From assembly GCA_963823555.1 (NCBI GenBank), contig CAWGMA010000001.1, forward strand, positions 1,792,001 to 1,856,000: a stretch of 64,000 bases of DNA, written 5' to 3'. Numbering within the stretch: the stretch's first letter is position 1; every line of letters begins with the position of its first letter. Both the position numbers and the translations under genes were made by a program. Origin of the DNA: Candidatus Eiseniibacteriota bacterium. Lineage in GTDB: Bacteria; Eisenbacteria; RBG-16-71-46; CAVPCR01. This document shows positions 1 through 20,965 of this stretch, piece after piece. The notes below the pieces were generated by a model, which was given only the letters and a program-made list of their open reading frames with translations, was not told the DNA's origin and searched no databases.

Positions 1-968
1 GATGGCGGAGCGTCCAGTTCAACCTGCGAAACGCTCTGGACCCGGCTCTTGGCGGCGGGGATGAGCCCCTCGAGTAACCCGACAATTCGGCCCCCCAGGA
101 CCTTGGCCTGTTCGCCGGAGCGCGCCACCACGGTGACGCGGATCGGGGTCGACGAGGATGGGATCTGGTTGATCCAGCTTGCGACCTCGATCATGACCGG
201 CGGCACCTGGCTCCGGGAACTACGCCGGGCCGAGAACTCCGATCCCTTCTCCATCAGGAGATCGTCCCCGTTGAAGACGAAGAGCGGATGCTCCAGATCG
301 CCGCTCCGGTAGGCGGACACCTCGAAGCCGTCACCTACGAATGTGCGCTTGTTCCCTGCCCGATCGAAGCTGGTGAAGACATAGGAATAGGTGCGACCTG
401 GCACCGCTGTCGCGCCCCCCCTTTCTTGCCCGTCCCAAGCGATCTCACGTGGCGGCTTTCCCTTTCCCTCGAAGGCGGCCACCGGGTTGCCGCGGCCGTC
501 CACGACCTCGAGGCGCCAGCGGTCCACGCCTTCCATGGAAGGGTGAAACACGGCGACCGAACCGGTGGTGAACTCCTCGAGCCAGGGATGCCCCAGGTAG
601 GGGCAAGGCGCCCAGGTCGAGGACGTGAAGAGCGGAACGGTCATATCAGGGAAGGTGCGGTTCAGTACGTCTTCGATGCTGCCCCAGTCGAGACCAGGGG
701 CTGTTTCGGGAGCGAGATCGAGTGCGAGCGGAGGCCGCTCGTAATCGATGTGGATGCGATCCTCGCCCTCGACCGTCAGGCTGCGGAACGCCGTACCGTC
801 CTCACCACCGTGGAGGACGAGGCCGGGGTCGGCGTCCGGCGCCGGGTCGGCGGCAAGAGCTCGGCCACTAGGCGCCAGCAGGATGCCGGTCGCGACGATT
901 GCGACCAGCCATGGACGGCCATGGGATGCCCGGCCGAGCGGACGGCGATGGGTGATCGACGAAGACAT
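1..968 (-). CDS. Secreted protein with FlgD-type Ig domain and possible degenerate OmpA-like C-terminus (3'-partial, runs off the window edge)
   Basis: Absent from the ORF track because it has no stop in the window. Manual translation from ATG 968 (GGGAGA RBS) is open to position 1. Signal-like WLVAIVATGILLAPSGRALAA, then WRLEVVDGRGNPVAAFEGKGKPPREIAWDG...PGRTYSYVFTSFDRAGN, which closely resembles the C-terminal domain of 6785-8071. Confidence 0.8.
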   Translation of the reverse strand, partial: MSSSITHRRPLGRASHGRPWLVAIVATGILLAPSGRALAADPAPDADPGLVLHGGEDGTAFRSLTVEGEDRIHIDYERPPLALDLAPETAPGLDWGSIEDVLNRTFPDMTVPLFTSSTWAPCPYLGHPWLEEFTTGSVAVFHPSMEGVDRWRLEVVDGRGNPVAAFEGKGKPPREIAWDGQERGGATAVPGRTYSYVFTSFDRAGNKRTFVGDGFEVSAYRSGDLEHPLFVFNGDDLLMEKGSEFSARRSSRSQVPPVMIEVASWINQIPSSSTPIRVTVVARSGEQAKVLGGRIVGLLEGLIPAAKSRVQSVSQVELDAPP

Positions 969-985
969 GACACATCTCCCGAATA

Positions 986-1972
986 TCAATGAGCGTCGGT
1001 GAGGCGGAAGTGAAATGTGATCCGCCCCCACTGCTCGCCGGTACGACCGGCGCTCAACGGCTTGAACCTCCAGGCCCGAAGCGCGGCGCGAGCGCTGTCA
1101 TCGAACTCCTCGAAACCCGCCGTCTTCTCGACGACGATGTTCTCCTTGATCGTGCCGTCGGACCGCACCACGAAGTAGAGCGTCACCGACGCTTCGATGC
1201 CTTCCCGCTTCGCCCACTCGGGATAGACCGCGGCGACATAGCTGGCGATGGGACGGTCGGCGATCGGGCCCAGGAGAGAGGCCCCGGCCAGCGTGCGCAT
1301 CGAGTTGGGCGACCCCCCAGCTTCCGGCTCGGCGGGGGCATCGGCCTTGGTTTCCGGGAGCGCCGCCATGCGCAGCGGCCGCCCGGAGGTCGGAGCCGAT
1401 CCCCGAGTCAGAGCCAGCGGGGCGTTGCCGCTCTCCTGCCCACCCTCGCGGCGAAGGGCGATAGGCGGCGCGGCTGTGCTGAGGGGGGAGCCGTCCGGTC
1501 GTCCCGCCCGGCTCTTCCACAGTCCAGGTAGCTCGACGGCAGAGGCCACGCTCGCCCCGACCGGGGCCGGGGACTTGCGATCGAGCTTGGCCAAGCGTGC
1601 TTCGAGCCGGTCCGCGATGGCGATATCAGATTGCGGTCGCACCACGACATCGGCATCTTCGTCGCGGGCGAAACGCTCCTCCTCGGGTTTGGCTCCGATG
1701 CCGGGGGTGCTTGGGCCCGGGATCGCCTGACCGGGATTGCCGCTCACGGTCTCCTCGCCCTTCGACACAGGCGCCGGACTCGCAGGCGTCATCGCCGCGA
1801 GCTCGTCATCGGTGAGGAAGGTGATCTCGGTGATCACCTCCCCTTCGGCGTCGGGGGATGGCACGAAGACGAGCCACATCAGGAGCATGGCGTGCACCAG
1901 CACGCTCGTGCCCATCGCCCAGCGGGTACGGCTACGGGCCTCCGTCCGGTCGCGATTGAGAGGGGCGATCAT
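986..1972 (-). CDS. tonB: TonB family energy transducer
   Basis: N-terminal TM SVLVHAMLL (SxxxH motif), Pro-rich linker, TonB_C domain YPEWAKREGIEASVTLYFVVRSDG...FDDSARAALRAWRFKP. Confidence 0.9.
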   Translation of the reverse strand: MIAPLNRDRTEARSRTRWAMGTSVLVHAMLLMWLVFVPSPDAEGEVITEITFLTDDELAAMTPASPAPVSKGEETVSGNPGQAIPGPSTPGIGAKPEEERFARDEDADVVVRPQSDIAIADRLEARLAKLDRKSPAPVGASVASAVELPGLWKSRAGRPDGSPLSTAAPPIALRREGGQESGNAPLALTRGSAPTSGRPLRMAALPETKADAPAEPEAGGSPNSMRTLAGASLLGPIADRPIASYVAAVYPEWAKREGIEASVTLYFVVRSDGTIKENIVVEKTAGFEEFDDSARAALRAWRFKPLSAGRTGEQWGRITFHFRLTDAH

Positions 1973-2448
1973 GGGTGCATCCCTCCCGCCGTCCAGCCAA
2001 CGTTCGCACCGGCTTGCTGGCGAGTGGCCACGGCGAGATGGGTAGCGCCGGCGGCCCGGGCCTCGGTCAGGAGCTTCTCCACCGCAGCATGGGACGCCGC
2101 AGAGTCGGCCCGCACGACGACGAGCACGTCCGCGTTTCCGGGCTCAGCCAGCCGCGCTGCGAGCGTGACCCGCAGTAGCTCGGGGGTGATGAAGTCACGA
2201 TCGATCGCGACCTCCCCGTCCGGTCCCAGGGTGATGCTCACGTTGCGCTGGTCCTCCGCGTCGCGCGTTCGCGCCGGCGGGAGGTTCACTTCCAGATCCG
2301 CCACCGACAGCATCGGCGCCGTCACCAGGAGGATGATGACGAGCACGAGAGCCACGTCGATGATCGGCGTCACGTTGATGCGAGTAATGAGATCGCGATG
2401 CGGGTTGGCGCTCGAGACCGTCTTCCGCATGTTCTTGCTTCGCTTCAT
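1969..2448 (-). CDS. exbD: ExbD/TolR biopolymer transport protein
   Basis: INVTPIIDVALVLVIILLVTAP TM with the conserved Asp, and VVVRAD motif. Start at 2448 or 2430. Confidence 0.88.
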   Translation of the reverse strand: MKRSKNMRKTVSSANPHRDLITRINVTPIIDVALVLVIILLVTAPMLSVADLEVNLPPARTRDAEDQRNVSITLGPDGEVAIDRDFITPELLRVTLAARLAEPGNADVLVVVRADSAASHAAVEKLLTEARAAGATHLAVATRQQAGANVGWTAGGMHP

Positions 2449-2449
2449 G

Positions 2450-2860
2450 TCATCGTCCCACGACGGCGATTTCACCAGCGCCGAGCTGCTTGGCCTCGTC
2501 CAGCACGCCGACGAAGATTCCATGGGCGACGCCCGGAGCGCAGCGCACGATCACGCGCCCGGTCGAACTCTGGGCGAGCAGTGGACCCAATTGCTCCGCC
2601 AGCATCTCACGAGGCAGCTCGGTGCGATTGACGACCACCAGTTCGTTGTCCGGGATCTCGATCTCGATCCGCTCCGCTTCGCTTTCAACGGGAGCCTTCC
2701 GCCCGCTGGCCGACGCCTGGCGGACGGCGATGCTCGACTGGAAGGCCAGCGGCATGGCCACCATCAGGATGACGACGAGAACCAGGGACACATCGATGAG
2801 CGGCGTCAAGTTGACGTCGTGAATGCTATCGAGGACCCGCTTGCGAGCGATGTTCGCCAC
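2450..2860 (-). CDS. exbD: ExbD/TolR biopolymer transport protein (second paralog)
   Basis: VNLTPLIDVSLVLVVILMV TM with the conserved Asp. GTG start after a GGAGAG RBS. Confidence 0.88.
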   Translation of the reverse strand: MANIARKRVLDSIHDVNLTPLIDVSLVLVVILMVAMPLAFQSSIAVRQASASGRKAPVESEAERIEIEIPDNELVVVNRTELPREMLAEQLGPLLAQSSTGRVIVRCAPGVAHGIFVGVLDEAKQLGAGEIAVVGR

Positions 2861-2876
2861 AGTGCTCTCCTTGCCC

Positions 2877-3560
2877 CTACGCCGCGCGCTCGATGGGGTG
2901 CAGGGTCGGACGTCCGGGCTCCGGCCGCCGCTCGCGGGTGGCGACCTCCGCCTCGTGCGCCAGGCGCAGGGTGCGAGCGTGGTTCTCAGCCACGGTGAGC
3001 ATCACCGTCGTCTGGCGAGCGAAGTGGTTGTAGAAGATGACGGCCGGCACCGCCACCACGAGGCCGGCGGCGGTCGTGAGCAGCGCTTCGGCGACGCCGG
3101 CGGCGACGACCGAGGGCCCGGCCGAACCGGTGGCTGCCATGTCGTGGAAGGCGCGCATGATGCCCCATACCGTCCCGAGCAGTCCGACCAGGGGCGTGGT
3201 GTTGCCCATCGTGCCCAGCACCCCGAGGTTGCGCTCGAAGGACAACCGCTCCGCGCTGAGGGTGATGGCAAGCTGCTCCTCGATGACATCCGGCGGTTGC
3301 TGCGCATTCTCGAGCACCGTCGTCCCGGCTCGACCGAAGGGATGAGGCGTCGAGGCCAGCGCGTGCAAGGCGCCCCTGGTGTCGCCGCCGCGCACGCCGA
3401 TCAGAGCCGCTCCCAGCACGGCGTCCGGGTTTCCCCGCCGCTTCCAGAAGTAGATGCTGCGCTCGATGATGAATCCCAGCACGAGCACGCTGCAGCCGAG
3501 GATGATCATCATCACCGGGCTCGAACGGACAGCCCCGATCCAGTCGAAGTTCGCGAACAT
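2877..3560 (-). CDS. exbB: ExbB/TolQ/MotA proton channel protein
   Basis: LGTMGNTTPLVGLLGTVWGIMRAF and GVAEALLTTAAGLVVAVPAVIFYNHF motifs. Confidence 0.93.
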   Translation of the reverse strand: MFANFDWIGAVRSSPVMMIILGCSVLVLGFIIERSIYFWKRRGNPDAVLGAALIGVRGGDTRGALHALASTPHPFGRAGTTVLENAQQPPDVIEEQLAITLSAERLSFERNLGVLGTMGNTTPLVGLLGTVWGIMRAFHDMAATGSAGPSVVAAGVAEALLTTAAGLVVAVPAVIFYNHFARQTTVMLTVAENHARTLRLAHEAEVATRERRPEPGRPTLHPIERAA

Positions 3561-3593
3561 CAGACCTCTCCTCTATGTCGTCGCCGTTCCGGT

Positions 3594-6500
3594 TCAGTCG
3601 GTCGCCGGGCTCTTTCCGGCGGCGCCGGATGTGAGCTCGCCGGCTCGACCCGCGGCCGCGGCGGCGAGCTCGCGGTCGGCGGTGTGCTGAGCGATGTCCC
3701 GATAGGCCTTGGCCGCCCGGGCTCCATCACCCTTCTGCTCGTAGATGGCCGCGGCCCGCGCCAGCGCCGAAAGGCGGAAGGGATCGTCCTTCGGCTCACC
3801 GGCGGCCACCTGACGATAGACCTCAAGCGCCGGTTCGGAGTCGCCGAGCTGCTCCCAGCATTGGCCGAGCCGGTAGCCCAGTTCGAGTTTGAGGGCGGGG
3901 TCGGTGGCGCGCTCGAACGCGTGGCCGAAGGCAGCCGCTGCCTCCGACCAGCGCTCGGCCGCGCCATGAAGGTCACCGAGCTGGTAGGACACGAGTGCCG
4001 ATCGCTCGTCGTCGCCATACTCGCTCTGATAGTGCTCGAGCGTGGCCAGGGCGGCCTCATCATCGCCCAGCTCGCGCTGGCACAGCGCAAGGTTGAACCG
4101 CGCCGCGGAGGCCATGTCGGTCGAGAGGCTGTCATCGAGCACACCCGTGAACATGATGGCGGCCTTGAGATGCTCACGAGCCTCGAATTGCAGCATGCCC
4201 AGCCGGAAGCTCACTGCCGGGCGCAAGTCGCTGTTCGGGAAGTAGCTCAAGAACTGCTCGTACGCGAGGCGAGCCTCGGCCGCGGCCCCGGTCCGCGCAT
4301 AGCAATCGGCCAGCAAGTACTGCGCCCGATCGGCGGACGAATGCTCCGGGAAGCGGGTCACGACCTGGCGGAAGGACTCGGCAGCCGCCGCATGGTCCTC
4401 CTTCTCGTACTGCTTGCGCGCGATCTCGAACTGCGCGTCGCCGGCGAAGGAGCTCGCAGGATACTGCTCAACCAGCTTCGCCAGCACCGCGGTGCCGCTG
4501 TCGCTCTGTCCGAGGCGGTAGAGAGCCTGCTCGGTGCCCCGTTCCGCCTCACGGGCGACGTGGCTTCCGGGGAACGCAGTCATCGTTCTGGCGAATCCGT
4601 CAATGGCCTCGACATCGCGCCCGGCATTGTAGTCGCACTGCGCGAGCCGCAGCATGGCCACGGCGGCAGCCGGGGTCTCGGCGAAATGACCGAGCAACCC
4701 CCTGTAGCAGCGCTGCGCATCGCTGTAGCGCTCGGCCTGGAAGTACAGATCCCCGGCCCGGGCCCAGGCCCGTTCGGCGACGGGCGCGTCGGGAGCGGCC
4801 GTGATCACTTCCTCCCAGCGATCGACCGCATCGCCGGCGCGATCGCGGCGCATGTAGCAGAGACCCGCCTGGTAGAGCGCCAGGAGTCGGTCGGGATGGG
4901 TGGGGAAGCGCTGGGCGAAGTCGTCGTAGGCAGCCCCGGCGGCGACATAGCTCCTTCTGATTGAAGCGCGCGTGCGCGATGTGCAGGTAGGCTGGGCTCA
5001 GGTCCTCACTGTCACTCTGACCGTAACGCGCGATCATGCGCTCTTCGGTGGCGATGGCCAGGCTGTCGCGGCCCTGGCGAGCATAGGTCCAGGCCAGGAG
5101 CCGGTTGGCTGCCAGTCCGATCTGATGCTCGGGGAACTCCTTGAACAGGCGATCGAGCGTCTTCTCGACATCGGCATGGCGCCCGAGGGCGGCCAGCGCA
5201 TCGGCATCATAGAGGAGCGCGTTGGCCCGCCACGGTGAGTTCGACGGCGGCATGCGTTCGAGCAGCAGGTGAGGAGCACCGGCCAGCTGCCCGAGGTTTC
5301 CAGCCCGGTGATAGGAGAGCTCGAGCAGGCACAGCGCAGCCTCGACCAGCTCCTGATTCTCGGGAGAAGTGAAGACCAGCGCCCCGTTCCCGGCGGCGGA
5401 TGGGGCATAGCGATCGATGACGAGCTGGAAGTAGGGAGCGGCTACCAGCGGGCGATCGAGCTTGAGCAGGCCGACGCCGGCGAGATAGGCCGCAGCCGGA
5501 GCTTCCGGGGCCAGGGGATAGCCGGCCACCACCGCCTGATACGAGCTCGTCGCCTCGGCTTCCCGGCCCAGACCGGCCAGGCAGCGTGCCACCCGGTACT
5601 GCGCGCTGGCTGCAACGGAGTGGTCGAAGTACGAGGTGAGAACGCGGTTGAAATCGAGGATGGCGGCATCGTACTGACCACCGCGGTACTCGATCTCTCC
5701 GATCAGGAACTGCGCCCGCGCGCCGACGTCTGTGCCCTGGTAGTCCCCCCCGACGCTTCTGAGGAGGGCGATGGCGGAATCCGGAGCCCCGGCCAGGAAC
5801 ACCGCCGCCGCAGAACGGAGCGCGGCCTCGCCGCGAATCTCCTGTTCACCGGTGCCTTCGGCCACGCGAGCGAACTCCTGGGCCGCGCTCTTGTAGTCCC
5901 GGCTGGAGAGGAACACGTTGGCCTTGGCCAGAGCGGCCGCATCGGCCATGGGTGAATCCGGATAGCGGTCGACCACCTCCTTGAAGAGCGCCGCCGCCTT
6001 GAGCACCGAGCCCGTGCGGCTATGGGCCAGGGCTCGCAGGTAGACGGCCTCTGGGCAATCGTCGGCGGTCTCGAGTGCGGCCAGCGTCTCCGCCGGCTTG
6101 TCGCTCAGGTAGAGCGTCGCGCCGCGGGCCAGAGCCACCCGCGGATCACTGGCAAGAGCGGCGTTGAGCTTCGCGATCTGCTGCAAGAGCTGGCCGGCCT
6201 CATCCACCTTGCCCCGGCGCATGGCGTTCCAGGCGCGGGCCAGGCAAGCCTCACCGCGAAGCGGGCTCGACTCGTACCGACGATCCCATTTCGACCATTC
6301 ATCGGCGGCCTCGGCGTCCTTGCCGGCAGCTTCCAGGGAGCGGATGCGCGCGAAGTCGGCATCATCGGCGAATGGGCCCCCATCGCGCGCCGCCTGCTTG
6401 AACCGTTCAGTCGCCTGGTGCGCGGCGCCGAGATCGAGCTCGAGCTGACCCTGGAGGAAATCCGCCGCTCCGCGGTCGGCCCCGGTGAGGCCATCTCGCT

Positions 6501-6738
6501 TCACGATGTTCAGCTCGTTGGCCACGCTCTCCAGCGACTGGAGGCGTTCCGCGCCTTCCATCAATCGGGCCTCTTCATAGGCCCGACCGAGCGCGGAAAG
6601 CTGGTCCCGAGCTTCCGGCCCCGAGGCCTGGGCTGAGCCACGGGCAAAGGGACCGCAGATCCCCAGCAGGCAGAACGCCACCCCCCCCACCCATCTCGCC
6701 CATCGGGCGCGCCGGCGGTACCATGCCGCTTGCCTCAT
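3594..6738 (-). CDS. Large periplasmic TPR protein (~1047 aa), one extra base near 4953
   Basis: Signal peptide from ATG 6738 (GGAG RBS) and many CpoB/BamD-type TPR pairs (YPDSPMADAA, YPASSFAGDAQF, FPEHSSADRAQY). Removing one G in AAG-G-AGC-TAT joins the two track ORFs into a continuous TPR array (...FNQKSYVAAGAAYDDFAQRFP...). Confidence 0.85.
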
Positions 6739-6784
6739 CGTTGACTCCTCTCCTCGAAACGTAGCCTGTCTGGCAAGGGGCACC

Positions 6785-8071
6785 TCAGTCGACCGGGACG
6801 ACCTCGATCCTCCCCTGAGGCCCACCGGTCGCGATCTCGACATGCTCGACCGCGCTCGCCATCTCGCGTCCCTCGCTGTCGAGCACGGTGAGCTGGTAGC
6901 GATAGACACCGTCGGGAAGCGGCAATCCGGCCTCATCCTTGCCATCCCACATGAGATGCGCAGGAGGCGTGCCTTGCCCGGCGAATCGGCGCACGGCCTC
7001 GTCGGACTTGTCGCGGATAACGAGGCTCCACTTCTCGGTATCGGCCTTGGTGCGCGCGGTGAGATTGATCTTGGTGACAGCCTTCTCCCCGGTCGGCGAG
7101 AAGATGTCGGGTTCGGCCTTCGAGCTCGCGAAGAATCCGCCGAAGCGATAGGACAGACCGACCCGGTGCACGAAGCCCAGGTCATGATCCGCCAGCCCGT
7201 AGTCGAGCTGGAAGCGGCGATCGAAGCGGTAGCTCACGCCTCCCGCCGCCGCCTGGTCTCCGTACCCGAGGCGCAGGCCGAGCTGCGGCTGCAGCCAGTA
7301 CTCGCTGCCCCCGCGCAGGCGGAAACCGGAGCCCGAGACGTGGTCGACCTCAGCGGTGACGAGGCCGCGTCCACCGAGAATGGCCGCCGAGAGTCCGCCC
7401 CTGACCTCGAACGGGAAGCGCTCGTCCACCTCGCGCAGCGACACGTTGGGGCCGCCGACGTTGAGCACCGAGGCACCAACCCGCAGGTTGGGAGCTACGT
7501 TCATCATGGCGCCGAGATCGAAACCGACGCCGCCCCCGCTCCAGTCCTCCACCGACTGGTGAACGATCTTGACATTGCCCCCGATGGAGAGGCGCGGGGA
7601 CAGTCCCTTGGCCACGCTGATGAGAAAGGCCGTATCGCCCGTTCCGAACGTGCCCAGGGGATCGTTCAGCTCATTCGTGCGTTCGAACTGACCCGAGCCA
7701 AGGTGGATCATGCTGACGCCCAGGCTCGGCAGCCGGCTGCGCCGGCTCCCCGGCACGGCGAAGCTGAACCCGTTCATCGCCGTATCCTCGAAGAGCCGTG
7801 CGGTCTCGAAGCGCACCTCGTTCTGCTCGAGCACCGTGAGGCCGGCGGGATTCCACACGACACCGAGCGGTTCATCAGCGGTGGCGACGAAGGCTCCACC
7901 GAGCCCGAGCGTGCGCGCCCCGACATAGTCGGAGAGCCAACCTCCCGGGATTCCGCCCTGCTCATCGGCGGCGGCCGCCGCCCCGGCGGCCAGAAGTCCG
8001 GCCATGGCCAGGCAGAGGGCGCCGGCATGCGCCGGGGCGCGACGACGATTGCGACTTGAGTTGCGATTCAT
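6785..8071 (-). CDS. PorV/PorQ-like (UPF0164/FadL-like) outer-membrane beta-barrel with C-terminal FlgD-type Ig domain
   Basis: Signal peptide, N-terminal GARTLGLGGAFVATADEPLGVVWNPAGL motif, amphipathic strands ending HRVGLSYRFG, then FSPTG...WSLVIRD...WDGKDEAGLPLPDGVYRY. Confidence 0.82.
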   Translation of the reverse strand: MNRNSSRNRRRAPAHAGALCLAMAGLLAAGAAAAADEQGGIPGGWLSDYVGARTLGLGGAFVATADEPLGVVWNPAGLTVLEQNEVRFETARLFEDTAMNGFSFAVPGSRRSRLPSLGVSMIHLGSGQFERTNELNDPLGTFGTGDTAFLISVAKGLSPRLSIGGNVKIVHQSVEDWSGGGVGFDLGAMMNVAPNLRVGASVLNVGGPNVSLREVDERFPFEVRGGLSAAILGGRGLVTAEVDHVSGSGFRLRGGSEYWLQPQLGLRLGYGDQAAAGGVSYRFDRRFQLDYGLADHDLGFVHRVGLSYRFGGFFASSKAEPDIFSPTGEKAVTKINLTARTKADTEKWSLVIRDKSDEAVRRFAGQGTPPAHLMWDGKDEAGLPLPDGVYRYQLTVLDSEGREMASAVEHVEIATGGPQGRIEVVPVD

Positions 8072-8120
8072 GAAGCTCACCCCTCGTTGTGCGCGAAAGC
8101 ACGCTCCGGCATCGACCGGG

Positions 8121-11100
8121 CTAGCGGACAACCGCGACCTTGCGGCGCATGACATGGAGCGTCTCGCCGCCACCCTTGGCCTCGACGTGAACCAGGTACC
8201 CGCCGCTGGCGACGAGGTCCCCGGATCCGCTGCGCCCGTCCCAGGTGAATTCGTTGAGACCCACTGTCCCGCCGGTCGCCCCGGGCGAGAACTCCTCGCG
8301 GCGGACGAGATCGCCCGTGAGCGTGAAGATCTCGAGCACGACGGTCGCGTTGTCGTCGATCTTGTAAGCGATCGTGGTTGCTCCTTGATCGGGATGGAAC
8401 GGATTCGGGTAGTTGGTGATCGTGCCCCCGCCCGCGGTCGGATCGACGAAGGCGGTCTGGAGCTCGAGCTCGGCGCTGAGGTCGCGCGAGCGAGCGCGGA
8501 TGAGAGCCATTTCCGGCTGCCGGGCGCTCAGGTAGTCGGCGGTGGCGATCCCGAGCTCGTTGCTCAGGCTGTCGATCGGACTCAGCACGCCATTCCCCGC
8601 GACCAGCTCGAAGACAACCGGCTCCCCCGGAACCCCATTGGCATAGGCGTCGACGACGTGCGCGCTCAGGGTCGCGTGCCGGTTGCCGCCGAGCCACGAC
8701 GGGTCGCTCGCGAGCTCGCACCGCCGCCGGCACGCCGGGATCGACGGTGAGCACGTTCGAGGCCGCCGGCGCGTTCCCCAGGTCGTCACTGGCGATGAGC
8801 ACGATCGGCTCGGCGAAGGTGTAGGTCTCGCTGATCGAGCGCTGGCCCTGCAGGAGCTGGAATCGAGTGTTGAGGAGCGTCCCCCGCCCCGGCTCGCGGG
8901 TGGAGGCGTTCAGGACCTCGATGGTCACGAACGAATTGATCTCCTGGATCGTGCTGCCGGCGTCATTGGTCACCCGCACCGTGAGGGTGAAGGGCTCCCC
9001 GGCGCGGACCCGATCGGGATCGATCTGTGCTTCGAGATGGAAGCCGCTCGAGATGGCCCGCACCTGGGTCGTGGAGCCCGGACGCGACGGATCGCTGACG
9101 TCCTCGACCGTGATCTGCTGGTAGCCGCCGGTGGCGAGCCGCACGGTGAGATCGGCGGCGCCGTCGGTCAGCGGGGTGTCAGCGGGCAGGGTAGCCAGCG
9201 GGTCGTTCGACGTGATGTGAACGACGTCGCTGACGCCGTGCACGGGATTCCAGTGCTCATCAGTGGCAAGGACCGTGACGGTGAAGGCGTAGTTGATCGA
9301 CTGGTCGGTGGCTTCGCCGCTCCGCCCGCTCTCGGTCCCCGGGGCCGGGTCCTCGCCCGGAGCCAGGATGAGGAGACGAGCGAAGGGACCGGCAACCACG
9401 AGGACCGGGTTCGACGTATCGGGCTCGATCGCCGGCTGGTCGAGGTCCTGCGCCGTGATCTGCTGTTCGCCGGCGAGGAACAGGCGGCAGGGCACGACGA
9501 GCTGGCCATTGACCAGCGCGGTGTCGGCCGGCACCTCGGCGAAGGGATCGGTGGAGGAGAGTGCGACGCGATCGCTGATCCCGCCCACCAGATTCCAGTA
9601 GGCATCGACCGCGCGCACCGTGACCTGGAAGGAACTGCCAGCCGCCTGATCATTGGCCGCGCCCGACTGGCCGGTCGCGGTGCCTCCGAGCGGGGTCTCG
9701 CCGGGCAGGAGGACCTGCAGCTTGACGAAGGGTCCGGGCTGGACCTGGAAGCTCTGGCTGGTTCCGGTATGGGGTGGGGTCGAGAAATCGGCGCACGTGA
9801 AGGCCACTGCCCCGCCCGCCCCACGGAACGTGACCGCGCCGGTCCACACGCCGTCGACGAAGGTCACCAGCTCGGGCGACATGCTGCCAGAGCCGGTGTT
9901 GGCGCTCAGCACGGCATCGCCGCTGAACTCGGGGATTGTGTTGTCGTTGCCGTCGGTGGCTCGGATGGTCACCGTGACCGGACTGCCGGCGACGAGCGGG
10001 GTCGCAAACGGCTCGATCACGAAGTGATCGATGGAGCTCGGGAAGACGGGGATGTCGGCGGTCGTCATCCCTTCGATCCCGCCGTTGGTCTGGTCGGTGA
10101 CGGACAGGGTCTGCATCCCGACCGTGCCGAGCGAGACCTGGAACTGGCGATAGCCGTTGGTGAGGGCGCCGCTCTGCGGCGTGTTGGCCGCGCCATCACT
10201 CGAGAGGAGGCGGACCGTATCGCCGCTGGGAACCGGATTCCAGTAGTCGTCGGTGGCATAGATGTCGACCGGGAACGGCTCGCCTGCCGCCTGCGGGGCG
10301 GGGTTGCCGATCAGGCCGGAGACCTCCCCCGGCACCGGCGTCTCTCCCGGGACCACGATCTGGAGCCGGGCGAAGCTTCCGGGATGGACCACGAAGGGGT
10401 CGCTGGTGCCGTTCTTCTGCGATGCTTGCTCGAGGAAGGCGTAGATGTTGACGTTGCCGCGGTTGATATTGGTCTCGTCGGCCCGGTACATGGTGACCGA
10501 TCCGCTCCACTCGCCCTGGCTCAGGGTCACCCGATCCGGGGAGATCCTCCCTTCGCCGAAGCTCGTGATCTCCTTGAGAGCCACTTCGCCGCTGAAACCG
10601 GTCACCACCTGCCCGTTCGGGTCGCGGGCGCTGAGCGTGATCGACATCGGCACGCCGGCGTACTGGTTCTTCTGCGAGATGCGGGAGAACTCGAATCCAC
10701 GCAGCACGTGCACGGTCACGGCCGTTGAGACACCATCTGGAATCGTGTTGTCCGTGAGATCATGGGCGAAGACCGTGAACGAGCCCGCTGCATTCAGGGC
10801 CACGGTGAACGAACCCTCACCCGCCGCCAGCTGAGCCGGAGCCGGGAGGGTCGCGCTGCCGTCGGAGGCGAGCACCTGAATCGTGTTGGTGATCGTGGAC
10901 GCGGTGCTCCAGGTGTCATCGCAGGCGCGCACCGTGACCTCGAACGGGACCTCGGCGGCCTGGGGAATGGGCGTTCCCGTGCGACCGCTCGGCGTGCCCG
11001 GGGCTGCCGCCTCTCCCGGCAGGAGCACCTGGAGACGAGAGTAGGGGCCCGCGGCGGCTGGCAACGGAGCCAGGAACACCGTCGCGAGGAACGCCGCAAG

Positions 11101-11133
11101 CAGGGGCGACAGCATGCGCTTCGACTGGAACAC
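8121..11133 (-). CDS. Secreted Ig-repeat surface protein (~1000 aa) with FlgD/T9SS-type C-terminal sorting domain, one extra base near 8718
   Basis: GTG start with GGAGA RBS and a signal peptide. Repeated beta-rich modules. After the frame change, a Big1-like domain (ATLSAHVVDAYANGVPGEPVVF) and CTD NYPNPFHP...WDGRSGSGDLVASGGY...RKVAVVR. Confidence 0.85.
9050..11049 (-). repeat. Four ~115-aa intragenic protein repeats (LQVLLPGE...G..G...Q.AG..F.VTV.A.D..WN)
   Basis: Copies begin near 11049, 10380, 9735 and 9390, interleaved with a second module type (AG.P..TI.A.D..G). Confidence 0.85.
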
Positions 11134-11239: not shown

Positions 11240-11255
11240 AGCAGAGCGCGTGCCA
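11240..11255 (-). promoter_or_regulatory. Candidate sigma54 -24/-12 promoter
   Basis: Minus strand TGGCAC-GCGCT-CTGCT (GG-N10-GC), about 105 nt upstream of the 11133 start. Confidence 0.6.
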
Positions 11256-11491
11256 CACGGTGATGCACGACCGCTCTCGCATTCTGGAGCTGGGTGGCGA
11301 TGTCGCCGAAAGTGACCGTCAACACTCGACCGCACCATTGCGCTTCGCAAGAGGTGCGCCACAGCCCCCACCTGGACGGTGTCGACTGGGTGATCGTGCC
11401 GTGCGCCATGCAGCGCAGTGCCGGGCGCGAACTGCATGGTGACAGCCGCATCATGCAGCGCCTCGCGTCTTGCAGACCGTGGCCCAGGCTC

Positions 11492-13393
11492 TCAGCACAT
11501 GGCGAGGCCGCAGTTCGGGCAGCTGCGACAGCCTTCACCATGGATCAGGCGGCCGCCGCACTCCGGGCAGCGATCCCGGCGCGCGCCGAGCGGAGCCAGG
11601 GACAGCTCCTCCTGATGGGCCGGCGCCGGGGCGACATCCAGCCCCTGATCGACGCCGGCGATCGCCCGCGCTGCCGCTTCCCCGCGCTCGAGCACCTGGC
11701 TGTCACGGCTGCCGTCGCGGTAGACGGTGATCCCCTTCAGACCGAGGCGATGGGCCAGGAGATAGGCGGCGCGCACATCAGCGATCTCGGCCGAGCGCGG
11801 GAAGTTGATGGTCTTGGAAACCGCGTTCTCGGTGTGGCGCTGGAAAGCCGCCTGCATTCGCACGTGCCACTCCGGGGAGATATCGTAGGCAGTGCGAAAC
11901 AGCCGCTGTACGCGCTCCGGAACGTGCTCGAGCCCCTGCACACCGCCGGTATGGGCGATCGCGCGCATGAGCTCCTCGGCGTAGAACCCCTCCGCGCGGG
12001 CCATGCGGACGAAGGCTGGATGCACATAGACGAGCTCCCGGCCGTCCATGACCCGCTTGATGAAGCTGACCGCGAACAAGGGCTCGATGCCCGAGGAGCA
12101 GTCAGCGATCATGGCCAGGGTTCCGGTCGGTGCAACGGTCGTCACCGTGGCGTTCCGCCGCGGCTGGTCGCCGCGATACACCGAGCCGTCGAAGGCCGGG
12201 AACGGACCGCGCTCGCGGGCGAGCGCGACCGTGGCCTCGATGGCCGCCTCCTGCACCGCCTGCATGACGCGCTCGCCGAGGGCGATCCCTTCCTCCGAAT
12301 CGTAGGGAATGCCCAGCTCGATCAGGAGGTCGGCAAAGCCCATGACCCCGAGACCCACCTTGCGGTTTCGCTTGACGACGGCCTCGATCTCGGGGAGCGG
12401 ATAGCGATTGACATCGATGACGTCGTCGAGAAAGCGGATGGCGAGGCCAACCACCTCGGCCAGGCGGTCCCAGTCGACACCGCCGCCGCGCCCAAAGCAG
12501 GTCAGATTGATCGAACCGAGGTTGCACGCCTCGAAGGGCAGGAGCGGCTGCTCCCCGCAGGGGTTCGTGGCCTCGATCGGTCCCTGATCCGGCGTCGGAT
12601 TCTGTTCGTTCAGGCGGTCGAGAAAGACGAGCCCAGGGTCACCCGTGCGCCACGCATTGGCGACGATTCGGTCGAAGAGGGCAATGGCATCGATGCGGCC
12701 GACCACCGCCCCGCTCTGGGGATCGCGGAGGAGAAAGTCCCGCCCGGCCTCGACCGCGGCCATGAACTCCTCCGTCACACCCACCGACAGGTTGAAGTTG
12801 GTGAGCTCGCGGGGGTCGTTCTTGATATCGATGAACTCACCGATATCCGGGTGGTCGACGCGCAGGATGCCCATGTTGGCCCCTCGCCGCGTGCCGCCCT
12901 GTTTGATCGCCTCGGTGGCCCCATTGAACACGCGCAGGAAGGAGACCGGCCCCGAGGCCACACCGGAGGAGGAGCGAACGACCGACCCCCGCGGGCGCAG
13001 GCGGCTGAAGGCGAAGCCCGTGCCTCCCCCGGACTGATGGATGAGAGCGGCCTGCTTCAGCGTGTCGAAGATGCCCGTGAGGGAATCCTCGACCGGCAGG
13101 ACGAAGCAGGCGGCCAGCTGGCCGAGCGGCCGCCCGGCGTTCATGAGCGTGGGGCTGTTGGGGAGGAAGGCGCGGCGGCGCAGGATTTCCTCGAACCGCG
13201 TCGCGACCGCCTCGACCTGAGCGGCCGTCGCCCTGCCCACCTCGGCACCGGCCACGAACTGCGCCACCCGGCGCCACATGGTCTCCGGGGTCTCGATGAC
13301 CCGTCCAGCGGCGTCCCGGCTCAGATAGCGGCGCTCGAGGACCTCGCGGGCGTTGGCGCTCAATTCGGCGGCTGACTGCATAGTGACGATCAT
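11492..13393 (-). CDS. nrdJ: Adenosylcobalamin-dependent class II ribonucleotide reductase
   Basis: FLPNSPTLMNAG, ACFVL, GGGTGF, RRGANMG, ATNPCGEQPL, TTVAPTGT motifs and a C-terminal Cys-rich ribbon (CPECGG...EGCRSCPNCG...C). GGAGG RBS. Confidence 0.95.
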   Translation of the reverse strand: MIVTMQSAAELSANAREVLERRYLSRDAAGRVIETPETMWRRVAQFVAGAEVGRATAAQVEAVATRFEEILRRRAFLPNSPTLMNAGRPLGQLAACFVLPVEDSLTGIFDTLKQAALIHQSGGGTGFAFSRLRPRGSVVRSSSGVASGPVSFLRVFNGATEAIKQGGTRRGANMGILRVDHPDIGEFIDIKNDPRELTNFNLSVGVTEEFMAAVEAGRDFLLRDPQSGAVVGRIDAIALFDRIVANAWRTGDPGLVFLDRLNEQNPTPDQGPIEATNPCGEQPLLPFEACNLGSINLTCFGRGGGVDWDRLAEVVGLAIRFLDDVIDVNRYPLPEIEAVVKRNRKVGLGVMGFADLLIELGIPYDSEEGIALGERVMQAVQEAAIEATVALARERGPFPAFDGSVYRGDQPRRNATVTTVAPTGTLAMIADCSSGIEPLFAVSFIKRVMDGRELVYVHPAFVRMARAEGFYAEELMRAIAHTGGVQGLEHVPERVQRLFRTAYDISPEWHVRMQAAFQRHTENAVSKTINFPRSAEIADVRAAYLLAHRLGLKGITVYRDGSRDSQVLERGEAAARAIAGVDQGLDVAPAPAHQEELSLAPLGARRDRCPECGGRLIHGEGCRSCPNCGLAMC

Positions 13394-13522: not shown

Positions 13523-14962
13523 CTAGTACAGAGCCAGCGCGCCCGCGGTGGCGAGCTGATAGAGGACGGCGGGGAAGACGCCCAGGTGCAGCGTGCCGTA
13601 GGTCGCGACCAGGACGGCCAGGGCGGGAGCCAGGGTAGTGCGCATGCCGCGGGTCCACGCCACGGCGGGCTCCTTCAGGAAGAGCGCGATGACGACGCGC
13701 AGGTAGTAGGCAGCGCCGATCACCGAATTGAGGAGCGCGATCACCGCGAGGCCGGTCAGGTTGGCGCGGATCGCCGCGCCGAACACGTAGAACTTGCCCA
13801 TGAAGCCGGCCGTCGGTGGGATGCCGGCGAGAGAGAACATGAACAAGGCGAGCGCCGCCGCCAGGAGCGGGCGCTCGACGGCGAGTCCGGCGTAGTCGTC
13901 GATCTGCGTCCCCCTGCCCTCGCGCTCGAAGATGGCGACCACGGCGAAGGCTCCGAGGTTCATCAGGGCGTACGCCACGAGGTAGAAGAGGATGCCCGAG
14001 GTCCCGAACTCATCGCCCGCCGCCACCCCGACCAAGAGGTAGCCGGCGTGTGCGATCGAGGAGTAGGCCAGCAGTCGCTTCAAGCTGCGCTGCACCACGG
14101 CCAGGACGTTACCCACCGTCATGGTGAGGATCGCCATCACGGTCCACAAGGACTGCACGTGTTCGGCCAGCGGGAACAGGCCGACATCGAACACGCGCAG
14201 GAGCGCGGCGAAGGCTCCGGCCTTGGGTACCACGGCCATGAAGGCGGTGATGATCGTTGGAGCTCCTTCGTAGACATCGGGCGTCCACATGTGGAAGGGC
14301 ACCGCAGCGATCTTGAAGCCGAGCCCGACGATGACGAGGGCCATGCCGGCCATGACCAGGATCCCGCTGGCCTGCCCCATCTCGAGCACCAGCGCGATGC
14401 CGCGCAGACTCGTGGTCCCCGTCGCTCCGTAGAGCAACGCGATCCCGTACAGCAGGAAAGACGAGGCGAAAGCGCCGAGCAACAGGTACTTGAGACAGGA
14501 CTCCTCCGCCGGTAGATCGCGCCGGTAGCCCGCGAGAACGTAGAGCGCGATCGAATGCACCTCGAGGCCGAGGAAGACGATGAGGAAATCATCGGCCGCC
14601 GCCATCAGCAGGGCACCCAGACCCGAGAAGAGGAGCAGCGCGTAGAATTCGCCCGAATGCAGGCGGAACCGTTGGGCGTAGTCCGGAGCCATCAGGAGCA
14701 CGATCGCGAGCGCGGCGAGCAACAGCGCCCGCATGAACTGGGTGAACGCATCGATGGCGATCATCCCGGCTCCCACCACCGCTGCGTCGCCGCCCTGCCG
14801 CGTCATCGCCAGGGCGGCGACAGCCACCACGGCGAGGGACATGATCCAGGCCACTCGGCCATGCTGGCCGCGGGCATCGACGAGGAGCACGAGCAGGGCC
14901 CCCAGCGTGAGCAGGATCTCAGGGAGCAGGAGGCCCAGGGATAGATCCGGCATCTCGATCAT
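13523..14962 (-). CDS. nuoN: NADH-quinone oxidoreductase subunit N
   Basis: GFKIAAVPFHMWTPDVYEGAP and KRLLAYSSIAHAGY motifs. ATGA overlap with nuoM. Confidence 0.95.
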   Translation of the reverse strand: MIEMPDLSLGLLLPEILLTLGALLVLLVDARGQHGRVAWIMSLAVVAVAALAMTRQGGDAAVVGAGMIAIDAFTQFMRALLLAALAIVLLMAPDYAQRFRLHSGEFYALLLFSGLGALLMAAADDFLIVFLGLEVHSIALYVLAGYRRDLPAEESCLKYLLLGAFASSFLLYGIALLYGATGTTSLRGIALVLEMGQASGILVMAGMALVIVGLGFKIAAVPFHMWTPDVYEGAPTIITAFMAVVPKAGAFAALLRVFDVGLFPLAEHVQSLWTVMAILTMTVGNVLAVVQRSLKRLLAYSSIAHAGYLLVGVAAGDEFGTSGILFYLVAYALMNLGAFAVVAIFEREGRGTQIDDYAGLAVERPLLAAALALFMFSLAGIPPTAGFMGKFYVFGAAIRANLTGLAVIALLNSVIGAAYYLRVVIALFLKEPAVAWTRGMRTTLAPALAVLVATYGTLHLGVFPAVLYQLATAGALALY

Positions 14963-16536
14963 GGATTCACTCCCACGCCGAGGATCTTGGCGTCGACCAC
15001 GACCCCGTCGGAACCGCCATCCGCTGCGGCCCATGGCGCGCCCGCCGCGTCGAGGGCGGCCTCACGCGCACTCATGTCGAGAAGGAGGCGATCCACCGCC
15101 GCCTCAGCCGGACGGGTGAAGAAGTGCGGCTTCACACCGATCGCGAACACGAGGAGCAAGAGCGGCAAGAGGGATACGATCTCGCGGGCCTTCAGATCAG
15201 CGATGTCGCGCGCCGCCCCTCCCACCTCGCCGAAGAACACCCGCCGCACCATCCACAGCATGTAGCCGGCGCCGAGCACGACACCCGTCGCTCCCAGAAT
15301 GCCATAGAGCGCGCGATCCTTGAATACGCCGAAGAGGATCAGGAACTCGCCGGCAAAGCCATTCGTGCTCGGGAGCCCGATCGATGCCAGCACGAAGACC
15401 ATGGCGATGGCACTGAATACAGGCATGGCCCGCGCCACTCCCGAGAAGTCGGCGATCATACGCGTATGCGTCCGATCGTAGAGCATGCCCACGAGGAGGA
15501 AGAGCGCCCCGGTGTTGATCCCATGGTTCACCATCTGCAGGATTCCGCCGATGATCCCCTCCGGGTTCATGGCGAAGAGACCGAGAATGACGAATCCGAG
15601 ATGTGAGACGCTCGAGTAGGCCACGAGCTTCTTGAGATCGGTCTGGGCCAGTGCCATCAGAGCACCGTAGATGATGCCGGCGATGGCCAGCCACGCGAGT
15701 AGCGGCGCCAGATCCACGCTGGCCCGCGGGAAGAACGGGAGGCAGAAGCGGAGGAAACCGTAGGTGCCCATCTTGAGGAGCACCCCGGCCAGGATGACCG
15801 ACCCGCCGGTGGGCGCCTCGACATGGGCGTCCGGAAGCCAGGTGTGGAACGGCAGGAGCGGCACCTTGATGGCGAAGGCCACCGCGAAGGCGAGGAATAG
15901 CCAGCGCTCGAGACCTGCACCGACCATGACCGTACGCAGCACCTCGTAGTCGAAGCTCATCTGGCCCGTCTCGCGGGCACCCATGAAGGCCAGGATCAGG
16001 ATGGCGGCGAGCATGAGCACGCTGCCTGCCATGGTATAGAGGAAGAACTTGACCGCGGCATAGATGCGGCGGCCGCCTCCCCAGATCCCGATCAGGAAGT
16101 ACATCGGGATCAACATGGCCTCCCAGAAGACATAGAAGAGGAGCATATCCAGAGCCATGAAGACGCCGAGCATCGCCGCCTCGAGGATGAGGAAGAAGGC
16201 GAGATAGCTCCGGAGCCTGCTCTTGATCGACCAGCTCGTTCCGAGGAGCGCGAGCGGGGTCAGAACGGCCGTCAACATCACCAGCAGGAGTGAGATGCCG
16301 TCGATGCCAACGTGATAGGTCGCTCCGACGGCGTTGATCCAGGGCACCTGGCGCTCGAACTGCACGAGGGGCGACGAAGCATCGAATCCGCTCCAGACCT
16401 GGAGCACGACGGCGAGCGCGAGGAGCGAGCCGAGGAGGGCCAGCCCGCGCTGGAGCCCGGCCGCTCCTCCCGGCATGAGGAGGATGAGGATCCCGGTCAG
16501 GGCCGGGATGGCGATGGCTAAGCTCAGGGGATCCAT
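14959..16536 (-). CDS. nuoM: NADH-quinone oxidoreductase subunit M
   Basis: GIDGISL, FYVFWEAMLIPMY, PFHTWLPDAHVEAP and KKLVAYSSVSH motifs. Confidence 0.95.
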   Translation of the reverse strand: MDPLSLAIAIPALTGILILLMPGGAAGLQRGLALLGSLLALAVVLQVWSGFDASSPLVQFERQVPWINAVGATYHVGIDGISLLLVMLTAVLTPLALLGTSWSIKSRLRSYLAFFLILEAAMLGVFMALDMLLFYVFWEAMLIPMYFLIGIWGGGRRIYAAVKFFLYTMAGSVLMLAAILILAFMGARETGQMSFDYEVLRTVMVGAGLERWLFLAFAVAFAIKVPLLPFHTWLPDAHVEAPTGGSVILAGVLLKMGTYGFLRFCLPFFPRASVDLAPLLAWLAIAGIIYGALMALAQTDLKKLVAYSSVSHLGFVILGLFAMNPEGIIGGILQMVNHGINTGALFLLVGMLYDRTHTRMIADFSGVARAMPVFSAIAMVFVLASIGLPSTNGFAGEFLILFGVFKDRALYGILGATGVVLGAGYMLWMVRRVFFGEVGGAARDIADLKAREIVSLLPLLLLVFAIGVKPHFFTRPAEAAVDRLLLDMSAREAALDAAGAPWAAADGGSDGVVVDAKILGVGVNP

Positions 16537-18452
16537 CACGACCTCCACGCCAGACCGAGGATGATGACCACCCCGAGGAGCAACACCAGCGCGTACCGCC
16601 GGACATAGCCCGATTGCACGATTCGCAGGCGCTCGGCCGTTCCGCGGATCAGAGCCGCTGTGCCGTTCACCATGCCATCGATGATGGCGAGGTCGAAATC
16701 CCGGTACAGGAATCCCGACAGCACGACCAGCGGCCGCACGACCAGGGCCTGGTAGATCTCGTCGAAGTAGTACTTGTTCGAGAACAAGGAGTAGGGCGCG
16801 GCGAACCGCTCGCGTAATGAGGTGGCGAGCGCCGGCCGCCACAGATAGGCCATGAGACCGAGGACGACGCCGGCGACAGCCACCGCCAGCGAGATCCCGG
16901 CGAGGCCGAGCTCGAGCCCGTGGCTCGCATGCCCGTGTTGCGCCGTCAGCGCAATATGCTCGGCATCGGCGAACACAGGGGCGAGGAAGGTGCCGAAGCG
17001 GTTACCGCCCTCGATGAAGGGAATGCCGACCCAGCCGCCAATCACCGAGAGCACCGCCAGCGCGACGAGCACGATCGCCATCGACGGCGGGGCTTCATGG
17101 GGGTGCGCGTGGGAATCGAGCCGGCTCTCGCCGTAGAAGGTGAGCGCCATCAGACGGAACATGTAGAAGGCGGTGAGCAACGCGCCGCCGAGACCGAGCG
17201 CCCAGAACAGAGGCCCGCGGGCCAGGAAGGTCTCGAAGAGGATCTCGTCCTTCGAGAAGAAGCCGGCGAGCGGGAAGATCCCGGCGATGGCCAGCGAACC
17301 GACGAGGAAGGTGACATGGGTCACTGGGAGCCGGCTCTTGAGCGCTCCCATCCGCCGCATGTCCTGCTCGCCGTGAAGGGCGTGAATGACGCTCCCTGAC
17401 CCGAGAAAGAGCAAGGCCTTGAAGAAGGCGTGCGTCATCAAGTGGAAGATGGCGGCGGCGAAGGCGCCCACGCCGCACCCCAGGAACATGTACCCGAGCT
17501 GCGAGATGGTCGAATAGGCGAGCACCCGCTTGATGTCGTTCTGAGTGAGCGCGATGGTGGCCGCCATGAGCGCCGTGGCCAGGCCGACGATCGCGACGAC
17601 CGCGAGCGCAGCCGGGGCCATCAGGTAGAGGACATGCGTGCGGGCGACCAGGTAGACGCCGGCGGTGACCATCGTTGCGGCATGGATGAGCGCCGACACC
17701 GGCGTCGGACCTTCCATGGCGTCGGGTAGCCAGACATGGAGGGGAATCTGCGCCGACTTCCCCGTGGCTCCGATGAACAGGAGGATGGCGATCGTCGTCA
17801 CCAGCGCCCCACCGGGAACCAGCTCCCGCGGCGCACGCTCGAGCACCACGGCCAGATCGAGGCTCGAGAAGTGAGTGGCGATGAGGAAGAGACCGATCAG
17901 GAATGCGAGGTCACCCACCCGGTTGACCAGGAATGCCTTCATGCCGGCGGTCGGCGGCGCCGGCTTCGTGAACCAGAAGCCGATCAGGAGGTACGAGCAG
18001 AGGCCCACACCCTCCCAGCCGAGAAAGAGGAGGAGCAGGTTCCCGCCGAGCACCAGGCAGAGCATGGCGAGGAGAAAGAGGTTGAGGTAGGCAAAGTAGC
18101 GCCACTCCCCGCCCTCATCGCCCCGCATGTATCCGAGCGAATAGACATGGATCAGGAAGCCGACGCCGGTGACGACAAGCACCATCACCGCGGAGAGCGC
18201 GTCGAGCCGGAAGGTGAGGGCTGTGGAGAGGCTGCCGGCGCTGATCCAGTCGCCGAGCGACGCCTCGAGCACCCGGGCGTCCGGTGGCAACGGAAGCAGG
18301 AGCCGTACGGCGCTCACCGCAGCCAGGAAGGCTCCGAGCGCGGCCAGGACCCCCAGGGCACCGGCCACCCGCGCCGGGAGCCGGAAGCCGACGATCCCGT
18401 TCACCAGGAAACCGAGCAGGGGGAATAGCGGCATCAGGAGGAGCGGGCTCAT
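16536..18452 (-). CDS. nuoL: NADH-quinone oxidoreductase subunit L
   Basis: [48 protein letters not shown] and [10 protein letters not shown] motifs. Confidence 0.96.
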
Positions 18453-18503
18453 GGCTTGCCCCCGCACCGAGCGCGCAAGAGCGCGTCACCGGTGGCGCTC
18501 GCG

Positions 18504-18806
18504 CTAGAACTTGAGCAGGTTGATCTGATCCACATCGGTTGTGGCTCGATTCCGGAAGATGGCGACGATGATCCCCAGCCCGACGACGACCTCGGCCGCC
18601 GCGACGGCAAGAGAGAAGAAGACGATGGCCTGACCGTCGATCGAGCCGAGCAGGCGCGAGAATGCGACGAAGGTGAGGTTCACCGCATTGAGCATGAGCT
18701 CGATGCACATGAAGATGATGATTGCCTCGCGACGGATGACTACCCCGACGAGACCGATCGCAAACATCACGGCGGCCAGGTAGAGAAAGGCAGGCGCGGA
18801 GATCAT
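18504..18806 (-). CDS. nuoK: NADH-quinone oxidoreductase subunit K
   Basis: [10 protein letters not shown] and [11 protein letters not shown] motifs, 100 aa. Confidence 0.95.
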
Positions 18807-20434: not shown

Positions 20435-20485
20435 GGTCCGAATTCCACCCTCGCCTCTCGCCCCCCGACCGAATCCCGGACTCGA

Positions 20486-20950: not shown

Positions 20951-20965
20951 CGCCTCCCCGCGTGA

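Follow-up and report, generated by a model that had tools for sequence, protein, structure and literature searches.

Motors of the Ton and Tol type have few known outputs, namely import, outer-membrane tethering, gliding and spore-coat assembly. Which output is served when such a motor is encoded together with a surface protein and a carrier barrel of the T9SS (type IX secretion system) kind is the question raised by a 64,000-nucleotide stretch of DNA from a Candidatus Eiseniibacteriota bacterium (assembly GCA_963823555.1, contig CAWGMA010000001.1, positions 1,792,001 to 1,856,000 of the forward strand), referred to below as the window. The source genome, G000, is 4.62 Mb in size and 92.5% complete. 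On the minus strand of window positions 1-11133 lie eight tightly spaced, co-oriented genes of all the types named in the original prediction, designated A to H: an immunoglobulin (Ig)-repeat protein, a PorV-like barrel, a tetratricopeptide repeat (TPR) protein, ExbB, two copies of ExbD, TonB and an Ig/OmpA-fold protein. This cassette is a real and strictly conserved accessory machine of the cell envelope, apparently undescribed and assembled from parts that are known. The explanation we favour, which comes close to an even chance, is an accessory Tol-Pal-like machine whose motor pulls the barrel-cargo pair A-B to position or release it.

The gene order was assessed in 80 of 92 genome loci and 80 of 244 metagenome loci. 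Wherever at least 9.4 kb upstream of H was available, the full eight-gene order was kept (38/38 genome loci and 6/6 metagenome loci, the others of each 80 being too short), and G lay upstream of H in all 67 genome loci long enough to show both. The synteny among relatives on which the original prediction depended was therefore strict. The named homologs of H belonged mostly to Candidatus Eisenbacteria and Krumholzibacteriota, while Zixibacteria and Latescibacterota were represented by one label each; a metagenome scan using H alone as query gave no match. A paralogous, distant cassette (L021, G015:C16) showed the same order at 27-42% identity, with a longer cargo.

The distribution of the cassette was patchy. 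H, as its marker, was present in 53 of the 153 phylum genomes that were at least 85% complete, unevenly even inside genera (these tallies take in G000 and an unpublished genome, G053). SprA was present in all 61 genomes of the class, while in this set H was found full-length or cut by a contig end in 18 genomes, a further three matching through a short Ig domain only. SprA-positive genomes without the cassette were thus common. Genome G001, of the same genus, has the two flanking genes side by side, and no cassette gene was present in the 19.6 kb examined. The cassette is an accessory unit, gained or lost whole, and not a general T9SS engine, since SprA is present in 61/61 genomes, the cassette is patchy and its site in G001 is empty.

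Judged by its sequence, the ExbB-ExbD-ExbD-TonB motor is intact. Gene D (2877..3560, minus strand, as are all cassette features below) encodes an ExbB/TolQ proton channel (MotA_ExbB PF01618, E 2.7e-32), whose third-helix motif was kept in 54 of 59 loci. Genes E (2450..2860) and F (1969..2448) encode two ExbD/TolR copies (PF02472), with the membrane Asp motif in 62/64 and 65/67 loci, respectively. Gene G (986..1972) encodes a TonB/TolA-type transducer (PF03544, E 2e-14; TIGR01352, 55.8 bits against a cut-off of 27.1) consisting of a short cytoplasmic N-terminus of ~18 residues before the membrane helix, an SxxxH helix, a Pro/Ala-rich linker and a TonB_C domain. The SxxxH motif was present in 38/38 sequences, in most of them ~285-291 amino acids (aa) from the C-terminus; a stricter pattern matched 49/67. 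The mean column identity was 67% in TonB_C and 41.5% over the whole of G, and a domain so much more conserved than the linker indicates a fixed partner.

This motor has no classical client nearby, as the seven TonB-dependent receptors of the genome, all encoded outside the cassette, gave no match in 180 loci when used as queries. The original prediction had noted no receptor, TolB or Pal in the part of the contig visible to it. Past window position 1, beyond H, lies a convergent gene that was read as moeA from its sequence, neither a receptor nor tolB or pal; with the genome's own TolB and Pal as queries, weak TolB-like matches appeared downstream in 2/180 loci and Pal-like ones in 1/180. A downstream receptor or tolB-pal as the explanation of the motor genes was discarded on these grounds. 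No downstream gene was conserved across the 51 loci with at least 3 kb of sequence there, the biggest neighbour family comprising 14 open reading frames. Seven ExbD genes lie in four loci of the genome: the cassette, a complete Tol-Pal-like operon (C1:456685-461736, with genes named from their sequence) and a pair of ExbB-2xExbD-TonB operons, of which one combines a TPR gene with ExbB, two ExbD and TonB and has no PorV (C1:533889-538150, named from sequence and ExbD matches). As the genome owns these other operons, the motor of the cassette is surplus to housekeeping.

The presumed surface pair consists of A and B. Gene A (8121..11133) encodes a protein of ~1003 aa, after correction of a frameshift described below, with a signal peptide, four copies of a ~115-aa repeat, a Big_1 domain and a C-terminal FlgD_ig, T9SS type-A-like tail. 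FlgD_ig scored above its cut-off, and a Lys was present in the last strand in 39/44 sequences. A Pfam scan of A gave no catalytic or lectin domain, and an Atlas search with the repeats led to unnamed clusters and generic Ig families. The mean identity of A to 38 relatives was 61% in its N part and 57% in its C part; A and ExbB were the most conserved parts of the cassette.

Gene B (6785..8071) encodes a barrel of the PorV/PorQ family (NF033709, 93.2 bits with a cut-off of 90; the L021 paralog scored 115.3), while its 18.7 bits with PorV proper (NF033710) stayed below the equivalog cut-off of 250. The structural model (pLDDT 89.7) comprised an N-terminal hatch, 14 strands by our own count and a C-terminal FlgD-type Ig domain, which the even strand number would place in the periplasm. 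Among PDB entries, a profile of B retrieved PorV 6h3i_F (E 8e-11) but no FadL up to E 0.1, and Foldseek ranked PorV first and second and FadL third. By family score, profile and fold search B is nearer PorV than FadL, as predicted from the start, and the possibility of a plain FadL channel was set aside. The tail of A is likely retained uncleaved on B, by analogy with cognate barrels that can hold their cargo anchored with the tail uncleaved (PMC10202324, PMC9143113).

T9SS components outside the Bacteroidota have been acknowledged as possible (PMC11285876), and the source genome encodes SprA, PorU and PorV, which the system requires. SprA lies ~90 kb from the cassette. PorU scored above its cut-off and stands beside a PorV-family gene at C1:705584, which is the likelier PorV; six PorV-family genes of the genome scored above the cut-off. 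About 154 of 3447 predicted proteins carried a similar C-terminal tail, as determined with our own gene caller and profile. The proposal that export is housed in one operon finds no support, as SprA, PorU and the main PorV are encoded elsewhere. GldM, GldL and GldN were not found in the genome and GldM_1st was found in 0/201 phylum genomes, both without a positive control (Bacteroidota records in a plasmid collection, tried for this purpose, gave sprA and no gld genes); GldK was not searched by family.

Several further loci with T9SS-type proteins were seen in the genome. At G000:C1:291761-300167, a 2170-aa protein with a T9SS C-terminal domain (CTD) precedes a PorV-like barrel of its own that bears a TPR-looking C-terminal extension, and no motor genes are adjacent. 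Within G000:C1:491107-519090, at least six ~1600-aa proteins match the protease region of the PorU model and, judging from these matches, are probably C25 peptidase-like CTD proteins arrayed in tandem. TonB-dependent receptor genes stand beside a PorV-family barrel and secreted proteins at G000:C1:2233187-2239813, C1:967782-977712 and C4:620621-627673, which suggests uptake units of receptor, PorV-type anchor and cargo.

The presumed periplasmic parts are C and H. Gene C (3594..6738) encodes a TPR protein of ~1047 aa after correction, with a signal peptide and repeats of the CpoB/YbgF kind; the PorW/SprE model gave 88.5 bits against a cut-off of 250. Gene H (1..968 and 51 bases past the window start, ending at G000:C1:1791949) encodes an exported protein of 339 aa with no Pfam or NCBIfam match of its own. 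Its model showed a low-confidence arm (~residues 40-130), a CTD/FlgD-like Ig domain and an alpha/beta domain of OmpA_C/MotB kind. The last domain aligned with MotB, TagL and OmpA_C (Z 9-10, root mean square deviation [rmsd] 2.8-3.6, 91-112 residues aligned) and, likewise at Z 9-10, with DotK, and the Ig domain with the CTD of PorU (Z 9.2, rmsd 2.0, 79 residues) and with FlgD (Z 8.1). By sequence, H matched only Top7 in the PDB (E 0.07-0.18), and an Atlas search pointed, as no more than a lead, to an OmpA cluster (0.85). Long, periplasm-spanning relatives of its second half are P0159, P0168, P0184, P0200, P0217 and P0244, which measure 1000-1800 aa and carry the Ig domain of H in 8-12 copies before a C-terminal OmpA domain.

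Residues 61-68 of H (765..788) fit a TonB-box pattern, itself short and weak, at one column in 43/53 family members, and T65, V/I66, E67, G68 and E69 are nearly invariant. Similar strands occur in the genome's own receptors, while B has no conserved column with this pattern (at most 2/44). The strand sits near the mature N-terminus, in the low-confidence arm, and is a candidate pulling site.

The favoured explanation starts from the gene content and order, the motor residues, the folds of B and H, the T9SS components elsewhere and the accessory distribution. As established T9SS biology implies, A would cross the outer membrane through the SprA of the genome; in Bacteroidota, a CTD protein exits SprA riding on a carrier barrel, and the two are extracted at the cost of energy (PMC10994853). 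A would then stay on its own barrel B by the uncleaved tail, like PorZ on PorQ or SprB on SprF. The periplasmic Ig domain of B, C and H may together form a connector in the role of PorE or of CpoB-TolB-Pal. PorE anchors PorP-type barrels with CTD cargo (PMC12618676, PMC9143113), is described as a CpoB-TolB-Pal fusion and may be trafficked like Pal (PMC12204202), and, given the OmpA_C fold of H and the CpoB-like repeats of C, this description speaks for a Tol-Pal-like machine. G could grip the box-like strand of H by strand addition and pull, which is the weakest step of the mechanism. A short box is what TolA and TonB engage by strand addition; TolB and the receptors carry it near their mature N-terminus (PMC8928145), and the placement of the strand in H at the same position also argues for this reading. 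The pull might move the A-B complex, cluster it or free it from a periplasmic tether. Of the hybrid of cargo/PorV pair, TPR scaffold and ExbBD-TonB motor originally proposed, the gene content stands, as the pair was always encoded with the TPR protein and an intact motor (38/38); the contacts between them remain conjectural.

A number of observations weigh against this explanation. The cassette encodes no TolB-type propeller, and H has no lipoprotein signal. The Asp and Arg that we take to be the peptidoglycan-binding motif of OmpA are present in the template P0159, whereas H has Leu for the template Arg in 45/53 sequences and no Asp after the strand, as read from a weak profile alignment (probability 14%); Arg 283 of H is conserved in 47/53, in the same weak register, and PF00691 gave no match. 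As the lipoprotein signal is missing and the motif apparently not kept, it is doubtful from the sequence that H anchors or tethers the complex to the cell wall. The box pattern is matched by 92 of 2930 genome proteins within residues 41-80. The tail of A scored 21.1 bits with TIGR04183, below the cut-off of 23 (the paralog in L021 reached 24.2), and by structure FadL is near PorV as a match of B (TM 0.52-0.56 and 0.55-0.57). The seven receptor queries were divergent and one recovered only itself in its own genome, so that a distant receptor could be missed in the loci, and the few weak TolB- and Pal-like matches downstream have to be counted as well. Finally, we infer every contact between the parts as well as the output of the machine. 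A predicted complex of the TonB_C domain of G with mature H scored 0.01 (mark 0.32) with 44-row alignments, which is evidence neither way.

A dedicated extraction motor, which would pull A-B out of SprA for this one cargo as GldLM-GldKN does in Bacteroidota, is a rather unlikely alternative. In Flavobacterium johnsoniae, release of the carrier-substrate pair is the step that costs energy, and it depends on the TPR protein SprE (PMC10994853). The weak match of C to PorW/SprE and the failure to find GldM, GldL and GldN, control-less as it was, would fit such a role, but the match can be put down to generic TPR similarity. Against it stand the ~154 predicted proteins bearing a similar tail, among them the 2170-aa protein mentioned above, which has a barrel but no motor adjacent, and the common occurrence of SprA without the cassette.

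Energised import, in which A would capture a substrate at the surface, B would be the channel and H a detached TonB box that opens the hatch of B in a SusC/SusD-like manner, appears unlikely. In its favour, the motor belongs to the ExbBD-TonB type, its linker is Pro-rich, and B has a FadL fold with a hatch. Moreover, a cluster of OmpA, TPR, ExbB, two ExbD and TonB genes in Fibrobacter succinogenes, compared here by gene description only, is up-regulated on cellulose, and cellodextrin import was proposed for it in the absence of a receptor (PMC6851124). The sequence of B, however, belongs to the PorV family with FadL undetected, and Pfam gave neither a catalytic nor a lectin domain for A. The flanks of the cassette contain no conserved gene for catabolism, inner-membrane transport or regulation, and the genome has seven ordinary receptors.

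Surface motility, with A as an adhesin on the carrier B (like SprB on SprF) moved by the motor in a hybrid of Bacteroidota and myxobacterial gliding, seems improbable. Cargo-carrier pairs do move along gliding tracks in F. johnsoniae (PMC10994853, PMC12618676), and the same 5:1:1 type of motor serves AglR-Q-S together with GltG and TPR proteins (PMC11761067). However, where an operon of F. johnsoniae combines cargo, carrier and PorE, this marks the cargo as static (PMC12618676), and the Glt core alone drives no motility (PMC3169522). G has no cytoplasmic FHA domain match and scored 22 bits with the AgmX/PglI model NF033768 (cut-off 40), the cassette contains no GltI/GltJ-like gene, and the 61% identity of A, which it shares with ExbB as the most conserved part, is unlike a variable adhesin. 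Two MglA-like proteins and no flagellin motif were noted in the genome in a motif search, a weak test that is in line with motility. A third kind of surface-translocation machine, in which a TonB-type motor would move or cycle an adhesin that is delivered by the T9SS and seated on a PorV-type carrier of its own, with neither a Gld nor a Glt track, in phyla showing no GldLM, is likewise a long shot.

That the cassette replaces GldLM for all SprA secretion in these phyla, as the presence of SprA, PorU, PorV and many CTD proteins together with the GldL/M/N searches lacking a positive control might suggest, is very improbable and was rejected as largely refuted by distribution, since SprA occurs in 61/61 class genomes and the cassette in 53/153 phylum genomes, the same-genus genome G001 lacks it at this site, and 5/5 H-negative genomes had no ExbD match within 10 kb of any PorV-family match. 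The probability beyond the favoured explanation and these four rivals is left for outputs not thought of.

Among the known systems closest to the cassette are the type-B CTD anchor modules of PorE with PorP/SprF in the Bacteroidota T9SS (PMC9143113, PMC12618676), in which one operon also encodes a CTD protein, its cognate PorV-like barrel and periplasmic TPR and OmpA-like parts. The cassette differs by a type-A/FlgD-like tail, a barrel of the PorV/PorQ family with an extra Ig domain, and TPR and OmpA-like parts that are two separate proteins, in which neither a propeller nor a lipobox was seen. It also adds a full ExbB-ExbD-ExbD-TonB motor to the operon. None of the cassette proteins matched CHU_C or PorP_SprF, and the PorE model gave 16-35 bits against a cut-off of 600. 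With Tol-Pal (PMC8928145, PMC12204202) the cassette shares a 5:2 proton motor, an SxxxH transducer with a TonB_C fold, a CpoB-like TPR protein, an OmpA_C fold and the lack of a receptor; unlike Tol-Pal, it has two different ExbD, a barrel and a surface protein, with no TolB and no Pal lipoprotein, and the source genome keeps its separate Tol-Pal-like operon. In its likely mode of action the cassette thus resembles Tol-Pal or a PorE-PorP-CTD module fitted with a motor, yet it belongs to neither system.

The Agl-Glt/Nfs machines and the Glt core (PMC3169522, PMC11761067) likewise combine ExbB, two different ExbD, a TonB-like protein and TPR proteins with outer-membrane barrels and a surface protein. 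The core layout to which the original prediction had pointed was indeed present, but the link was weakened by the second TPR-ExbB-2xExbD-TonB operon without PorV in the genome and by the lack of an FHA domain in G. Furthermore, the cassette has one TPR protein and not three and no GltI or GltJ, a PorV-type barrel and CTD cargo take the place of GltA/B/H and CglB, and no Glt-named model scored above its cut-off. Membership was rejected, the layout alone being shared. The type-A pairs PorU-PorV and PorZ-PorQ (PMC10202324) resemble A-B in having a type-A-like tail, likely retained, beside a PorV/PorQ-family barrel, but A has no enzyme domain, and those pairs have neither a Ton motor nor a TPR scaffold in the operon. 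From Ton import systems, the cassette has ExbB, the ExbD Asp and a TonB with SxxxH and TonB_C, but no linked 22-stranded receptor. The F. succinogenes cluster FSU_2396-2403 (OmpA, two TPR, ExbB, two ExbD and TonB; PMC6851124) comes from a cultured member of the Fibrobacterota-Chlorobiota-Bacteroidota group and shares the receptor-less Ton motor with TPR and OmpA proteins; these TPR and OmpA proteins are reported to be in complex with surface cellulases. The available part of that source names no PorV barrel or CTD cargo, and from the gene descriptions the cluster is a possible cultured analogue.

No description of the cassette was found in the literature, the gene-neighbourhood supplements of PMC12204202 and PMC3169522 lying outside the search. 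The cassette ties a Ton/Tol-type motor to a T9SS-type carrier-cargo pair, a link likewise not found there. Its eight genes form a closed, self-promoted unit that lends itself to cloning and testing as a whole, and the cassette is a natural test case for the proposal that anchors of the PorE type resemble Tol-Pal and are energised. The question of secretion is also sharpened in phyla with SprA, PorU, PorV and more than 100 CTD proteins in which GldLM was undetected, and the missing engine is not this cassette. Every carrier found is uncultured; the parts have known folds, and the function is inferred.

A sigma-54-like -24/-12 motif lies at 11241..11255 (minus strand), 122 bases upstream of A. 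The pattern YGGCAY-N6-TGC was present at -112 to -158 upstream of A in 11/11 regions and in 0-2.5% of shuffles; it had been relaxed after the sequences were inspected, the strict TGG form matching 2/11. It fits the sigma-54 consensus, and the genome presumably encodes, judged by motifs, an RpoN-box protein and 12 GAFTGA proteins. A sigma-54 activator likely switches the cassette on. A second sigma-54-like site, found in the window only, lies at 11347-11361 (minus strand), 228 bases upstream of A. Seven loci of one family (L008, L009, L015, L018, L022, L023 and L024) carry another conserved motif (~GTCGGG..CGTCCRCCC) between the promoter motif and A, close behind the former, a possible leader element that is not present in the window.

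In the assembly, a one-base frameshift splits A at 8718 and C at 4951. Near-identical short-read contigs, one of low depth for each gene, are a single base shorter at each site (8718 in run X1, 4951 in run X2), and the relatives checked had a single uninterrupted frame (10/10 for A and 14/14 for C). For both reasons the frameshifts are most likely assembly errors, and the reading of A and C as pseudogenes was ruled out. Further genes are split as well, namely those of a DegP-like protease (L001:10937-12608), a receptor (G000:C1:971217-973821) and a PorV-like protein (C4:623356-627673), which suggests scattered one-base errors across the assembly.

Genome G015 holds two cassettes, a close one (L016, G015:C62) and the distant one (L021, G015:C16) described above. 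The latter encodes a 428-aa TonB, and its H retains an Arg-Ala motif in the OmpA-like domain. At L018:11108-11608 a short duplicate of the cargo start and the barrel end lies upstream of the cassette, which could be an assembly artefact. Elsewhere in the window, ordinary ribonucleotide reductase and NADH dehydrogenase-like genes were read from the sequence (11492-13393 and 13523-23491). Genes for tRNA-Leu, tRNA-Cys and tRNA-Gly, equally ordinary, lie near 23690, 28582 and 36437, and a tRNA-Sec is also present in the genome.

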